Below, one piece after another: positions 4,590 to 60,674 of a stretch of 64,000 nucleotides of DNA (positions are counted from its first letter, which is position 1; the number at the start of each line of letters is the position of its first letter). The notes beneath the pieces were generated by a model. The model worked only from the letters and a program-made list of their open reading frames with translations, searched no databases and was not told the origin of the DNA. The stretch is taken from contig JAQIBY010000009.1 in NCBI GenBank assembly GCA_027858835.1, forward strand, positions 19,151 through 83,150. Reading direction: 5' to 3'. The DNA is from Bacteroidales bacterium. GTDB lineage: Bacteria > Bacteroidota > Bacteroidia > Bacteroidales > ML635J-15. The position numbers were made by a program, and so were the translations under genes.

Positions 4590-6956
4590 ATGAATTCAAG
4601 ATATCTTTTATTGTCAAGCCTTATGTTATTTGTCTTTTTTCAACTTGCTTTCACACAAGTTGGAGTTGGACAGTGGCAAGATCACTTACCATACTCAAGC
4701 GCAACATATGTTGCAGAAAATCAAACTCATATTTATACTGCGACTAAAGAAGCCCTATTTTCCTATAATAAATCATCAGGAGAAACTGAGCGACTGAATA
4801 AAGTTACCGGATTATCTGATGTAGGGGTAGAATCACTGGCCTATAGTCAGGAATATGATGTGTTAATTATTGGATATTCAAATGGAAATGTTGATTTGCT
4901 CAAGCAGCGTGAAATCGTTAATATATCTGATATTAAACGAAAAAGTATTTCATCTGAAAAAAGCATTAATCATATTTTGCTAATTGATCAATATGCTTTA
5001 CTTTCTACCGGTTTTGGTGTTGTTGTTTTAGATGTGGATAGACAGGAAATACGCTCTACTTGGTACATAGCTGACATGGGAGCATTTTTGAATGTTTTTG
5101 AAACTGATTTTGATGGACAATACATATATGCAGCAACTGAAGATGGAATCTACAAAGGGGATTACCTTAATGATAATCTTGCTGATTTTAATCAATGGGA
5201 AATTATAACCAATATTCCTTTCGGAAATCCTTACAGTTGGCTTACAGGGCGAAATTATAACACATTAGAATACTTTAACAACAAATTAATTGTTAATAAG
5301 CATGAACCAAATTTACAAAACAGCGATACATTGTATATTTATGAAAATGATAGTTGGACAAGCTTTCCTGACACATCAATTCACGAATGTAATTATTTAA
5401 CCGGTGACGAAGAAACCCTAATTATCAACAGGGATTATAGTCTTTTCCTAATGGATACAGCCCTTGATGATAAAACGAACTTGTATATATATAAATTCAA
5501 TTCCACAGGGGAAACACAAAGCCCAAACCCTTCAATTGCATTTCCCGGAATGGATGATCAATTAATTATTGCCGATTATACATCGGGGCTTATCCGCCAC
5601 AAAGGACCCTGGGACGACCAAACAATTTCTCTAAACGGACCCTTGTCTTCATCTGTATTTGATATATCAAGTGGTGGAGGCAATGTATATGTAGCGGCAG
5701 GCGGATTAACCCTTTCGTGGGGCCCCACCTATACAAGAGGAGAAATCAATTACCTCAAAGACAATACATGGGATTATTTAAATTACAAAAAGGACAGTGC
5801 TTTTAACGATTTTAACGACATTGTAACAATAAAAGTGAACCCCAAGAACCCATCGCAGGTATTTGCCGGCTCATGGATACATGGCCTAATGGAGTTGAAA
5901 AACGACCAAGTCATCAATATATACAATGAGTCAAATTCGACCTTGCAATCTGTGAGTTCTGCTGATTATGTGCGAATCGGAGGAATGGATTTTGATCAAG
6001 ACCAAAATCTTTGGGTTGTAAACTCCGGGAGCGATATCCCAATACACATGCTCTCCCCCGATGGAGAATGGATCGGTTTGGATTATTCGACAGAAATAAA
6101 TGCATTCAATATCGGAGAAATTATTGTAACACAAAATAATCACAAGTGGGTTGTTTTACCACGTGGTGGAGGGCTTTTTGCTTTCGATGACAATGGCACA
6201 CCAGATGATATCAGCGATGACAGATCTAAAAAATTCGGTCTCCGCGATGAATACGGTCAAACCATTTCTAATGAAGTGTTTTCAATTGCTGAAGATTTGG
6301 ACGGAAGTATTTGGGTTGGAACAAACATAGGAGTTGTCGTTTACTATAACCCGGAAGATGTATTTGATGAAAATCTTGTCGGATATCGAGTGCTTATTCC
6401 ACGTAATGATGGGACAGATAATGCAGATATTTTACTCGGTGCTGAAATTGTAACCGATATCGCAGTTGACGGAGCAAATAAAAAATGGTTTGCAACTGAA
6501 AGTGGCGGTGCGTTTAAAACCTCTTCAGATGGAATCGAAGAAATTCATCACTTCAATCAGGACAACAGTCCTTTATTTTCAAATAATGTGCTTTGTTTGA
6601 ACATTAATCAAGAAACCGGAGAAGTTTTCTTTGGTACGAACAAGGGCGTATTATCTTATCGCAGTGAAGCAACGATGGGCGAAGATGATTACAGTAATGT
6701 TTACACATTTCCAAATCCGGTTGAACCCGGATACGAAGGTCCAATTACTGTGCACGGCCTAATTAGTGGCTCCATTGTGAAAATTACGGATATCAGCGGA
6801 AACCTAGTATTTGAAACCCGTTCTGAAGGTGGACAAGCAATCTGGTACGGAAAAAATCTGAATGGCGAGCGTGTTCACACTGGTGTTTATTTAGTGTTTT
6901 CTGCAAATGAAGATGGCACACAATCCAATGTGACAAAAATTTTATTTGTTAATTAA
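4590..6956 (+). CDS. beta-propeller protein with a T9SS C-terminal sorting domain (PorZ-like)
   Basis: 788 aa with a signal peptide and repeated propeller-like segments. The C-terminus has an FPNP...KILFVN type-A T9SS CTD. Size and architecture match PorZ; the exact orthology is unverified. Confidence 0.6.
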   Translation: MNSRYLLLSSLMLFVFFQLAFTQVGVGQWQDHLPYSSATYVAENQTHIYTATKEALFSYNKSSGETERLNKVTGLSDVGVESLAYSQEYDVLIIGYSNGNVDLLKQREIVNISDIKRKSISSEKSINHILLIDQYALLSTGFGVVVLDVDRQEIRSTWYIADMGAFLNVFETDFDGQYIYAATEDGIYKGDYLNDNLADFNQWEIITNIPFGNPYSWLTGRNYNTLEYFNNKLIVNKHEPNLQNSDTLYIYENDSWTSFPDTSIHECNYLTGDEETLIINRDYSLFLMDTALDDKTNLYIYKFNSTGETQSPNPSIAFPGMDDQLIIADYTSGLIRHKGPWDDQTISLNGPLSSSVFDISSGGGNVYVAAGGLTLSWGPTYTRGEINYLKDNTWDYLNYKKDSAFNDFNDIVTIKVNPKNPSQVFAGSWIHGLMELKNDQVINIYNESNSTLQSVSSADYVRIGGMDFDQDQNLWVVNSGSDIPIHMLSPDGEWIGLDYSTEINAFNIGEIIVTQNNHKWVVLPRGGGLFAFDDNGTPDDISDDRSKKFGLRDEYGQTISNEVFSIAEDLDGSIWVGTNIGVVVYYNPEDVFDENLVGYRVLIPRNDGTDNADILLGAEIVTDIAVDGANKKWFATESGGAFKTSSDGIEEIHHFNQDNSPLFSNNVLCLNINQETGEVFFGTNKGVLSYRSEATMGEDDYSNVYTFPNPVEPGYEGPITVHGLISGSIVKITDISGNLVFETRSEGGQAIWYGKNLNGERVHTGVYLVFSANEDGTQSNVTKILFVN

Positions 6957-54623: not shown

Positions 54624-54708
54624 ATTTTATAGGCTTATTACTTAAATTGAACATCAAGACTTGAAAAACAATTTCAATAAGTTTCTGAAATTTATTTTAG
54701 TGACTGAA

Positions 54709-55788
54709 TTATCTATTCGTAAGAATGTTAAATAGTGGTTCGTTAATGTAATAATTACCGACACCAAGCTTTTTTTTTGTTAATAATCCATCATCTGCTA
54801 ATTTGTTCAAATAGTTAGCTGCGGTTATTCTTGATACATTCAAATCATTAACAAGAAATTCAATTTTAGTATAAGGATGTTTAAATAAGTTGTTTAATAA
54901 ATCTTGACTGTAAAATTTATAATTTTCACGTATCTTATGTTTGTAATCCATCATAAGGTTACTAATCAATTTAATTAAGTCAATTGTTTCCCTAGAAGTT
55001 TGCTCTATTCCTGTTATTATAAACAGTAGCCATTCTTCCCAAGAATCTGTTTCCCTAACGTCTTGGAGTAATCGATAATAATCCGGTTTATTTTTTATTA
55101 TATAACTGCTTAAGTAAAGGATTGGCAAATTTTGTAGTTTTTCTATTATCAAATACAAAATGTTAATAATTCTTCCAGTTCGACCATTTCCATCGTAAAA
55201 TGGATGAATGCTTTCAAATTGATAATGAATAATCGCCATTTTAATTAATGGGTCTAATTCATATTTATCTTGGCTATTAATGAATTCTTCTAAATTACTC
55301 ATTAATCGGTTAACCTCTTTATAATCTTGTGGTGGAGTATAAACAACTTCACCTGTCTCGGCTTTTTTCAATTCAGTTCCAGGAAGTCTTCTAAATCCAG
55401 CATTATTTCCTTCTAACTCTTTTTGTATTTTTATTATGATATTATTGGTAATAAAGCCGTTTTGTGAGACTAATTCAAATCCTTTTTTTATTGCGGTCAC
55501 ATAATTTTGAACCTCCTTAGCATTTAAAGATAAAAAAGAGTCGAAATTCAACTCCGATTTGTATAAATCATCATGTGTAGTAATAATATTTTCAATCGCT
55601 GAACTATCCTTTGCTTCTTGCATTCCAAGCGTATTAATTAAAATGCTTTGGTTGGGTATATTAGATGCTATTCCTTTCAGCTCTGCAAGCGCTGCATGAG
55701 CAGAAGCTAATTTTTTTAGCACCTTTTTGGTTTCAACATCCTTATTTAGCGGCAATTCTTTTAAAGCCCAATTATTATCCAAGCTCAT
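54709..55788 (-). CDS. Fic-family protein (class II; probable AMPylase) with a C-terminal winged-helix-like domain
   Basis: Fic motif HPFYDGNGRTGR. N-terminal inhibitory-helix motif SSAIEN ((S/T)xxxE(G/N)). The C-terminal LNVSRITAANYLNKL is HTH-like. Confidence 0.9.
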   Translation of the reverse strand: MSLDNNWALKELPLNKDVETKKVLKKLASAHAALAELKGIASNIPNQSILINTLGMQEAKDSSAIENIITTHDDLYKSELNFDSFLSLNAKEVQNYVTAIKKGFELVSQNGFITNNIIIKIQKELEGNNAGFRRLPGTELKKAETGEVVYTPPQDYKEVNRLMSNLEEFINSQDKYELDPLIKMAIIHYQFESIHPFYDGNGRTGRIINILYLIIEKLQNLPILYLSSYIIKNKPDYYRLLQDVRETDSWEEWLLFIITGIEQTSRETIDLIKLISNLMMDYKHKIRENYKFYSQDLLNNLFKHPYTKIEFLVNDLNVSRITAANYLNKLADDGLLTKKKLGVGNYYINEPLFNILTNR

Positions 55789-55790
55789 AG

Positions 55791-55899
55791 TGTAAGGTTT
55801 TTTTGATTTTCTTTACAAAGATAGCTCATTATGTAAAGAAAACCTAATTTTCTTTACATAAGCCATGGTTAATGTAAAGTTTTTTTGATTTTCTTTACA
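55791..55899 (-). promoter_or_regulatory. three phased 27-bp palindromic operators, TGTAA(A/G)G-N13-CTTTACA, upstream of fic
   Basis: P1 55791-55817 (1 mismatch), P2 55842-55868 (perfect), P3 55873-55899 (perfect). The 29-mers containing P1 and P3 match at 28 of 29 positions. Centres are spaced 51 and 31 bp apart. Confidence 0.6.
55816..55823 (-). promoter_or_regulatory. candidate -7 box (TATCTTTG on the minus strand) for fic
   Basis: The plus strand reads CAAAGATA. It overlaps the right half-site of palindrome P1 and lies 28 nt upstream of the fic ATG. Confidence 0.4.
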
Positions 55900-56024
55900 A
55901 ATTACACATTATGTATCGCTCTTTATGTCCCTCATGAATATTGCGGGTTAGTATATTAAAAAAGAAGCAAAGATGAAATTTTGTCGATTTTTGCCTAATG
56001 TTTCGCTTTCTCCGCTTGCTTCAC

Positions 56025-56032
56025 TAAATTTG
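56025..56032 (+). promoter_or_regulatory. candidate -7 box (TAAATTTG) for hemW
   Basis: Exact TAnnTTTG match ending 4 nt before the ATG at 56037. Confidence 0.3.
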
Positions 56033-59519: not shown

Positions 59520-60674
59520 ATGACAAAAATACTGGTCATTGACGATGAAAAAAGCATTCGAAATGTGCTTTCAGACGTTCTGCCTTACGACGTGGATTTG
59601 GCAGAGAATGGGAAAGAAGGACTAGAAGCCTTTAAAAAAGGAAGTTATGATGCTGTCCTTTGTGATATCAAAATGCCGGAGATGGACGGAGAAGAAGTGC
59701 TTGAAAAAGCAATGGAATTTAATCCGGAAGTCCCTTTTATTATGATTTCAGGACATGCAGACATTGACACAGCCGTTGAATGCATAAAAAAAGGTGCTTT
59801 TGATTTTATTGAAAAACCACCGGATTTAAAGCGTTTACAGATTACTATAAAAAATGCAATCGAGAAAAAAGACTTGGTTTCCGAAACCAAAATACTGAAA
59901 AAGAAAGTCAGCAAGCGATTTGAAATGATTGGGGATTCGGAGCCAATGCAAAAAATCCGGGAAATGATTGACCGCGTTGCTCCAACGGATGCTCGTGTGC
60001 TTATTACCGGATCAAATGGAACTGGGAAAGAACTGGTGGCACATCATCTGCATGAAAAAAGCAGCCGTGCCGGCGCTCCTTTTGTTGAAGTAAATTGTGC
60101 CGCCATTCCGTCAGAATTAATAGAAAGTGAGTTATTTGGGCATGAGAAAGGCGCTTTTACATCTGCACATAAACAACGGAAAGGGAAATTTGAACAAGCT
60201 AATGGCGGAACCATCTTTTTGGATGAAATCGGAGACATGAGTTTATCTGCGCAAGCTAAGGTTTTAAGGGCATTGCAGGAAAATAAAATTTCACGTGTCG
60301 GTAGCGATAAAGACATTAAAGTTGATGTACGGGTTTTGGCTGCAACCAATAAAAATCTGAGAGATGAAATTGAGAATAACAACTTCAGAGAAGATTTATA
60401 TCATCGCCTCAGCGTGATTATTATTGATGTACCTTCACTGAATGAACGCAAGGATGACATTACATTGTTGGCAGATTATTTTTTGGAAGTTATTTGTCAG
60501 GAGCATGGAACTCCGAAAAAGGTACTCACTGAGGGTGCCTTAAAAGCATTGCAAAATTACAACTATACCGGAAATATTCGGGAATTCCGAAATTTGATAG
60601 AACGTTTGATTATTCTGTCACCTGAAAAAATCACAGAAAAAGAAATTCAATCTTTTGCTTATCCATTTGATTAA
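59520..60674 (+). CDS. sigma-54-dependent response regulator (REC + AAA+) with no C-terminal DNA-binding domain
   Basis: REC domain (DDE...D...KMPEMDG). AAA+ domain with GSNGTGKE, GAFTSA and FLDEIG. The protein ends 21 aa after the NLIERLIIL helix, so there is no room for a Fis-type HTH. Confidence 0.85.
   Translation: MTKILVIDDEKSIRNVLSDVLPYDVDLAENGKEGLEAFKKGSYDAVLCDIKMPEMDGEEVLEKAMEFNPEVPFIMISGHADIDTAVECIKKGAFDFIEKPPDLKRLQITIKNAIEKKDLVSETKILKKKVSKRFEMIGDSEPMQKIREMIDRVAPTDARVLITGSNGTGKELVAHHLHEKSSRAGAPFVEVNCAAIPSELIESELFGHEKGAFTSAHKQRKGKFEQANGGTIFLDEIGDMSLSAQAKVLRALQENKISRVGSDKDIKVDVRVLAATNKNLRDEIENNNFREDLYHRLSVIIIDVPSLNERKDDITLLADYFLEVICQEHGTPKKVLTEGALKALQNYNYTGNIREFRNLIERLIILSPEKITEKEIQSFAYPFD

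Follow-up and report, generated by a model that had tools for sequence, protein, structure and literature searches.

In phd/doc modules, the antitoxin binds DNA and exerts negative feedback via palindromic operators. Some Fic proteins carry a DNA-binding domain of their own. CccR of Yersinia pseudotuberculosis is a type VI secretion system (T6SS) effector with a C-terminal helix-turn-helix (HTH) that acts as a dimeric autorepressor: its footprinted operator, AGATAATCAT-N26-ATGATAATCT, lies over the -35/-10 region, binding requires the dimer, the HTH helices are 70.2 Å apart in the apo form, and regulation can be separated from enzymatic activity (PMC9755527). The dimeric SoFic protein of Shewanella oneidensis (SO_4266) binds the 100-bp stretch that precedes its start codon, which a monomeric mutant does not, and prefers fragment F1 of its upstream DNA, this promoter binding being described without a defined operator (bioRxiv 10.64898/2026.07.09.737422). 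SoFic represents an anti-phage defence family whose wild-type member Sofic is toxic on leaky expression (PMC12249575), and CbFic2 of Coxiella burnetii binds random DNA with high affinity, the DNA binding stimulating (de)AMPylation (PMC10628234). The present analysis concerns the promoter of a SoFic-type fic gene located in a 64-kb stretch of a Bacteroidales contig (the whole stretch is called the window hereafter), where three copies of the palindrome TGTAAAG-N13-CTTTACA are found. These copies probably serve as an operator array for negative autoregulation, to which the Fic protein encoded directly downstream would bind as dimers.

AMPylators of the SoFic type occur widely and are acknowledged as an anti-phage family, which raises the question of how they are kept silent until needed. 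The principle that a Fic protein with a winged helix-turn-helix (wHTH) represses its own promoter is already published; what is new here is the identity of the operator, the rigid multi-site lattice on which it is repeated, its conservation across phyla, and the correspondence between half-site and recognition helix.

Three palindromes on a regular lattice

The sense strand of fic is the minus strand of the window, and operator offsets are counted from the fic ATG. Within the 64 kb, TGTAAAG-N13-CTTTACA occurs at one mismatch or fewer in three copies, all of them at the fic promoter and none elsewhere, for an expectation of 0.00 copies in dinucleotide-preserving shuffles; raising the tolerance to three mismatches adds just scattered weak matches. 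Operator O1 (P1 in the original prediction) lies at 55791..55817 on the minus strand, starts at -29 and reads TGTAAAGAAAATCAAAAAAACCTTACA on the sense strand, with one mismatch (CCTTACA, sense strand), and 2 nt separate its end from the fic ATG, whose A is at 55788. O3 (P3), at 55873..55899 on the minus strand, starts at -111 and combines perfect half-sites with an interior identical to that of O1. The motif search agrees with the original prediction on the coordinates of both, but places the core of O2 (P2) at 55832-55858, starting at -70, and not at 55842-55868. The centres of the three palindromes therefore fall at 55804, 55845 and 55886, that is, at a regular 41 and 41 bp, instead of the 51 and 31 bp given earlier. 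O2 is in fact a 33-bp near-perfect palindrome on the minus strand (55829..55861), TTATGTAAAGAAAA-N5-TTTTCTTTACATAA, whose 14-nt arms (55829-55842 and 55848-55861) are 100% complementary around a 5-nt centre; in O1 and O3, symmetry is confined to the outer 7-mers.

The six half-site centres follow each other at steps of 20, 21, 20, 21 and 20 bp, about two helical turns each; the half-sites alternate in orientation and share approximately one face of the helix. The helical phasing proposed earlier is thus present, in a more regular form than described (one half-site every 20-21 bp). O1 and O3 are identical at 30 of 32 positions (55788-55819 versus 55870-55901) and, in agreement with the earlier count, at 28 of 29 from the TGTAA start. 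Tandem Repeats Finder reported no repeat over the array, as the repeat units are only ~66% alike outside the half-sites; the 41-bp register was recovered by a repeat search. A 97%-identical relative (L281) has the same neighbours as the window and three palindromes, with substitutions in interiors and flanks and the half-sites kept. Its P3 is perfect, but has an interior that differs from that of the window P3, so that the identity of the O1 and O3 interiors in the window reflects a recent local copy or conversion, and not the origin of the third site.

Position of the array in the predicted promoter

Bacteroides promoters have a consensus -7 box, TAnnTTTG, and a -33 element, TTTG, 19-21 nt farther upstream. 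In the intergenic region between fic and hemW, the sole minus-strand TAnnTTTG is TATCTTTG, at 55816..55823, and this -7 box and the left half-site of O1 are fused through a 2-nt overlap (box read from 55823 to 55816), as the original prediction had it for P1. Going by the same consensus, a putative -33 element, TTAG, can be placed on the minus strand at 55844..55847, where it falls within the O2 spacer, 20 nt from the -7 box on its upstream side. Among 60 unique orthologous loci, 23 have an exact TTTG at the corresponding place in the middle of O2. With the start at its usual distance from the -7 box, transcription is predicted to begin at about 55811 and the leader would measure 23 nt. With the promoter elements so predicted, O1 overlaps the edge of the -7 box and covers the start, and O2 straddles the -33 position.

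On the other side of the intergenic region, the only plus-strand TAnnTTTG, TAAATTTG at 56025-56032, ends 4 nt before the hemW ATG (56037), a position at which the hemW mRNA would have little or no leader, unless the start codon is mis-called. The hemW gene was also considered as a target of the array and is an unlikely one, since over 100 bp separate O3 from the -7 box of hemW and the hemW-fic linkage was found in no other lineage.

Conservation across orthologous loci

As the original prediction would lead one to expect, the palindrome also stands upstream of orthologous fic genes: among 80 metagenomic loci encoding fic orthologues (72-86% amino acid identity), it is present at fixed positions in nearly all. 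When sites with up to two mismatches are located in the 400 bp upstream of the assigned start codon in 79 loci, every one of them sits on a lattice anchored at the ATG. Its positions are occupied at -29/-28 in 58 loci, at -70/-69 in 64, at -111/-110 in 23, at -152 in two and at -193 in one, and O1, O2 and O3 of the window lie exactly at -29, -70 and -111. Of the 82 intervals between sites, 81 measure 41 bp, and arrays comprise two sites in 39 loci, three in 18, four in one and five in one. In a profile of 55 non-redundant upstream regions, information is high in the half-sites and in the -7 box fused to O1, low in the 13-nt interiors, and absent beyond about -125. The consensus of the fused -7 box and O1 is TATcTTTGTA.AG, and the fusion itself is observed in 48 of the 60 unique orthologous loci. 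At the -111 site, the distal half is decayed and the proximal half retained in many orthologues, which leaves an everted (N14) pairing of half-sites possible beside the inverted (N13) one.

These data bear directly on two other explanations. Could the palindromes be a product of chance, or of neutral local duplication in AT-rich DNA, with no function? The region is indeed AT-rich, and P1 and P3 are near-identical copies, but no sites are expected by chance, L281 keeps all half-sites while the interiors diverge, and position and half-sites are conserved over 79 loci whose flanks are randomised, so that this explanation is effectively refuted by the comparative data. The inverted repeats may instead act as RNA, as hairpins of the 5' untranslated region or as an attenuator that affects translation or stability, given that O1 adjoins the start codon and that the sense-strand RNA folds better than its shuffles (z = -4.1). 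This score is nevertheless a trivial consequence of the palindromes, whose stems would have 7 bp and loops 13 nt, and only part of O1 would be transcribed because the conserved -7 box lies at -35..-28. Furthermore, it is the half-site sequence itself that is conserved, and not merely complementarity, and the 40-42-bp period with its 20-bp alternation fits the helical phasing of DNA, which makes a role as RNA highly improbable.

Linkage to fic across phyla

Of the 153 sites present in 390 kb of fic-anchored DNA, all but three (150) stand no more than 260 bp upstream of fic, and an array just downstream of the gene is found in none of the 79 fic-anchored loci. The hemW, major facilitator superfamily (MFS) transporter, DUF1858 and cysS genes of the window are shared with none of the other 79 loci, and the upstream genes are all different; as the window and these loci have no neighbour in common, fic is the sole constant partner of the array.

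The motif was also used as the starting point, by scanning reference genomes (one per species) for TGTAAAGAAA-N10-CTTTACA, which yielded at least 120 loci. A fic homologue is present in at least 54 of these, in most cases directly preceded by the site, and Fic is the only conserved protein family adjoining the sites among the matches listed (at least 41 loci). Outside Bacteroidota, motif and Fic occur together in Akkermansia, Mobiluncus, Cryobacterium, Hyphomonas and Sulfurovum, in isolates as well as in metagenome-assembled genomes (MAGs), with Fic proteins 37-57% identical to that of the window. The concern, raised with the original prediction, that the motif might be a common genomic repeat unrelated to fic is thereby largely removed, although a minority of real arrays, considered below, lie apart from any fic gene. 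No recombinase is conserved near the array, either in the orthologous loci or among the matches of the motif-driven scan that were listed.

The Fic protein and its predicted recognition helix

The fic gene (54709..55788, minus strand) encodes a 359-residue protein predicted to be a class II SoFic-type protein adenylyltransferase, with a Fic_N domain, a Fic core and a C-terminal wHTH (Pfam E-values of 2e-28 for Fic_N PF13784, 6e-18 for Fic, and 7e-20 for the SoFic-like C-terminal domain PF21248). The catalytic motif HxFx(D/E)GNGRxxR is intact (HPFYDGNGRTGR, residues 195-206), and the class II inhibitory motif (S/T)xxxE(G/N) is present as SSAIEN (residues 62-67), whose S62, S63 and E66 are invariant in the protein alignment. 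The PADLOC SoFic defence model is matched at E=2.6e-118 over 348 of 361 positions, the NCBIfam equivalog NF046030 with 374.7 bits, below its 550-bit cut-off, and SoFic structures in the PDB over the full length at E ~1e-76 (best 9vjc, 5e-79). These scores would make it a member of the family without being an equivalog of SoFic proper. An identical protein is on record from a Bacteroidales MAG. From its membership of this family, the window protein is predicted to be an AMPylator and an anti-phage protein.

The winged-helix domain covers residues 278-352 (54733..54957, minus strand). Its predicted recognition helix comprises residues 320-332 (RITAANYLNKLAD), with S319 just before it; on the minus strand, ~54799-54834 encodes residues 319-330 (SRITAANYLNKL). 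S319, R320, T322 and A323 are invariant in an alignment across phyla. In an AlphaFold2 model, of which only the confident C-terminal secondary structure was used, the last 50 residues reach a predicted local distance difference test (pLDDT) score of 70-85 and adopt an H-β-H-H-wing topology (H, helix) in which residues 320-332 form the third helix.

No co-oriented small open reading frame that could encode an antitoxin flanks fic in the window, and the 85 nt downstream of it lead into a convergent DUF1858 gene. Among the orthologous loci, no sequence conservation is seen downstream of fic beyond ~25 nt. A type II toxin-antitoxin module or a Sofic-AS1 pair was accordingly rejected, as there is neither a flanking small open reading frame nor conserved downstream sequence. 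A conserved 3' element was likewise sought after the fic stop codon, and the orthologous loci show no column-wise conservation there. A GCGGTAACA-like motif, approximately GCACAGGCGGTAACA, is nevertheless present at variable offset within the first 45 nt after the stop codon in ~40% of L001-L080 (for example L013, L021 and L033), GTAACA being found after the stop in 28 of 66 loci for 0.1 expected. It is absent from the window (54664-54708), and may mark the 3' end of a fic module.

Correspondence between half-site and recognition helix

Does the operator change together with the protein? More distant relatives were sampled without reference to the motif, in 80 loci from viral and mobile contigs (L201-L280; Fic 27-57% identical), and TGTAWAG palindromes occur in none of them. 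Repeats of other words are present instead. Direct 7-mer repeats at 40-42 bp were found upstream in 23 of these loci, versus 3 in coding and 6 in far-upstream controls, and are also enriched at 30-31 and 50-52 bp, with inverted 7-mers at 14-29 bp. The three peaks correspond to three, four and five turns, which suggests that helical phasing, and not one fixed period, is the constraint common to the family. The alternating ~20-bp layout of the window recurs with TGTCGAT (L203, L206), TAAAGGT (L202, L205), TGTCAAA (L207), TTGGAAT (L278, in exact 20-bp steps) and GTAAAGG (L220 and L228, in steps of 22, 19 and 22).

Half-site words and recognition helices go in pairs: SR.TA..(Y/W) is found with TGTAAAG, AK[SN]QTAS with TAAAGGT, and AKRQTAA and AQRQSAS with TGTCGAT. 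The SR.TA helix is present in 46 of the 50 motif-linked Fic proteins among the matches listed, down to 37% identity, whereas neither this helix nor the motif occurs in any of 74 motif-blind relatives, nine of which are 40-57% identical to the window protein. The helix of SoFic itself is AKRQTASVYL, and its best-bound fragment F1 holds ATGTCGAT repeats; upstream of E. coli Sofic (helix AKRQTASAYL), five exact TGTCGAT/ATCGACA half-sites occur within 170 bp for a shuffle mean of 0.03. The operator is thus conserved with the gene, and its half-site word appears, as far as sequences can tell, to track the recognition helix across subfamilies. This yields a recognition table that can be tested, with SR.TA paired to TGTAAAG, AKRQTA to TGTCGAT and AK[SN]QTA to TAAAGGT.

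In E. coli S10, at L282:1277-3577, a frameshifted SoFic-type gene adjoins a MobH relaxase gene, with a shorter gene of the Fic family coming after it; both Fic genes lie in what looks like an integrative mobile element.

These pairs also weigh on the idea that the palindromes are operators of another trans-acting regulator, encoded elsewhere, and not of Fic. The existence of arrays with no adjacent fic indicates that the binder can act in trans, and the window does encode other regulators, for instance a sigma-54-type response regulator (59520-60674). However, the motif follows fic across unrelated contexts and phyla with no other conserved adjacent family among the matches listed, the half-site type tracks the Fic recognition helix, and conservation from Bacteroidota to Actinomycetota is not expected of a host-specific regulator. 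Control by such a regulator is consequently quite improbable.

A model of autorepression

Negative autoregulation by Fic remains the probable explanation of the array, and the class of mechanism, autorepression by a wHTH-Fic, is taken from the CccR and SoFic precedents. The original prediction, which had put forward cooperative repression by a dimeric DNA-binding protein with the HTH-like C-terminal domain of Fic as candidate, is thereby supported; for binding by Fic the support is indirect, from the correspondence of half-site and helix and from these precedents. The Fic protein would be expected to dimerise via its N-terminal helix, each dimer setting its two C-terminal winged helices on two TGTAAAG half-sites ~20 bp apart (~68 Å, two turns) on one face of the DNA. 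O1, once occupied, would cover the edge of the -7 box, the transcription start and the short 5' untranslated region, O2 would straddle the -33 element, and O3 would extend the lattice, possibly with cooperativity between dimers. Occupancy of the array would exclude RNA polymerase and keep Fic at a low, self-limiting level. A tight negative feedback of this kind would fit the toxicity of Sofic, which is observed even from leaky expression (PMC12249575).

Arrays without fic and other points against the model

Several observations weigh against this model of autorepression. About 20 real arrays of the sample have no nearby fic, and among the matches listed, 26 of 73 sites from fic-less loci have a lattice partner at ±40-42 bp, versus 0.5% at random. 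Distant members L091, L150, L195 and L137 have the array downstream of fic, and arrays are present on both flanks of fic in Akkermansia and Mobiluncus, as direct repeats that are 94-95% identical (L113:5186-5281 versus 6535-6630, and L138:4765-4830 versus 6031-6096). With regard to the protein, the AlphaFold2 monomer model of the window Fic is poor overall (pLDDT 46, with a shallow alignment of close homologues), and the association between helix and half-site is partly confounded by shared ancestry. The precedents are imperfect as well: operator spacing is 36 bp in CccR and 20 bp in the window, and the SoFic binding assay was qualitative, at 25 µM protein (bioRxiv 10.64898/2026.07.09.737422). 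In addition, two perfect TGTATAG-N13-CTATACA palindromes stand 40 bp apart at about -256 and -216 of the S. oneidensis sofic gene (preprint Table S2), outside the best-bound fragment F1; the SoFic helix itself predicts TGTCGAT.

An N13 TGTAWAG palindrome had been expected in the best-bound fragment of SoFic, but these palindromes stand ~215-255 bp upstream, and the proximal fragment has TGTCGAT repeats. The second palindrome is cut by the border between fragments F3 and F2 of the binding assay, which suggests that the fragment design of that study split a palindrome. One possibility is that the Shewanella TGTATAG palindromes are bound by a second paralogue of SR.TA type. Two operator types also stand side by side, as in Shewanella, at L091:6663-6917, where a region downstream of fic and upstream of a DUF7149/DUF7814 gene contains two CATGTCGAAAAA-N-TTTTTCGACATG palindromes with a 40-bp period, followed by four TGTWAAG palindromes with a 41-bp period.

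Fic-less arrays with perfect pairs at 41-42 bp are found at L111:2607-2675, L114:3154-3221, L145:2716-2783, L156:4968-5035, L196:6128-6195, L186:5926 and 6551, L130:2221 and L123:996; no fic lies within the 8-kb locus. Gelatiniphilus marinus KCTC 42903 is one of the genomes with a fic-less array. A search by tblastn with parts of the protein for a hidden fic in the loci of fic-less arrays returned only two tiny C-terminal fragments (L173 and L126). These arrays occupy varied intergenic DNA, several of them next to defence-type genes that encode HsdR, an AAA_5 ATPase that may be McrB-like, Schlafen/AlbA_2 proteins, DUF4143 ATPases or a phage terminase, and on annotation the flanking genes have no family in common. 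They could represent a trans regulon or relics. Since fic-less, downstream and two-flank arrays exist, the array is not always a promoter operator, and together with the Shewanella palindromes these cases suggest trans-acting or structural roles beyond simple autorepression. Such exceptions, all located elsewhere, leave the reading of the window intact, as its array is in the canonical promoter-proximal position.

Could the array then serve a mobile fic cassette chiefly as its recombination site or boundary, in the manner of attC, with a regulatory appearance that is secondary? Several features go in this direction: fic and its array form a module placed in a different context at every locus, about two fifths of the loci have a GCGGTAACA-like motif after the stop codon, and fic-less arrays may be scars. 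Moreover, besides the two-flank direct repeats of L113 and L138, a 163-bp duplication of a host gene start, 99% identical (L150:1-163 versus 1555-1717), brackets a degraded fic and its downstream array; all these repeats may be traces of a recombination that duplicated or inserted the module. Such flanking repeats are nevertheless confined to a few distant members, no array lies just downstream of fic in the 79 loci, and no recombinase is linked to it. The array also keeps its distance from the ATG to the exact nucleotide and is interlocked with the -7 and -33 elements, and the agreement between subfamily half-sites and wHTH helix speaks for Fic as the protein that recognises them. A cassette boundary as the main role therefore has only a slight probability.

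A wider role of the array, beyond that of a repressor site, can also be imagined, although we regard it as unlikely. Two to five Fic dimers standing side by side on a half-site lattice of 20-21 bp might couple DNA occupancy to the state of the enzyme (compare CbFic2); with fic-less arrays beside genes for restriction, McrB-like, Schlafen-like and other defence proteins, SoFic-type proteins would act as transcription factors in defence islands; and the arrays would perhaps be points of recombination through which the fic module moves. In any case, the array provides a sequence signature for finding SoFic-controlled genes and makes SoFic regulation directly testable, without overturning any expectation.

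Comparison with known systems

A literature search on the motif words found no description of TGTAAAG-N13-CTTTACA. The locus of the window resembles phd/doc in that a toxin gene of the Fic/Doc fold has palindromic operators at its promoter, but DNA is read there by the antitoxin, whereas in the window no antitoxin gene is present and the enzyme has its own inhibitory helix and DNA-binding domain. With CbFic2 it shares a class II Fic with an N-terminal dimer helix and a C-terminal wHTH; no specific operator is known for CbFic2, while the sites of the window are embedded in the promoter and appear to be sequence-specific.

The likeness to CccR consists in a Fic protein with a C-terminal HTH and a widely spaced inverted repeat over its own core promoter, the promoter elements being predicted in the case of the window. 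Distant Fic entries of the PDB resemble the window protein in the Fic core alone (E ~1e-11). The distance of ~68 Å spanned by half-sites 20 bp apart compares well with the 70.2 Å of apo CccR, to be read with the poor monomer model of the window protein in mind. However, CccR has one operator, of 10-N26-10 type with 36 bp from centre to centre, whereas the clade of the window has two to five palindromes of 7-N13-7 type with 20 bp between half-site centres, on a 41-bp lattice. As sequence, spacing and copy number all differ, the window operator is not the CccR operator. CccR moreover acts as a T6SS effector, whereas the surroundings of the window fic show no secretion context.

SoFic and its E. 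coli counterpart are full-length homologues with the same domain order and with repeated half-sites upstream of the gene. They differ from the window in that no AS1-like small gene lies downstream of its fic, unlike in the Sofic-AS1 pair, and in that an AKRQTAS helix and a predicted TGTCGAT half-site take the place of SRITAA and TGTAAAG. Taken together, these comparisons allow a concrete operator, TGTAAAG-N13-CTTTACA on a 41-bp lattice, to be proposed for a large clade of Fic proteins, within a layout that is common to the family and a half-site that varies with the recognition helix.

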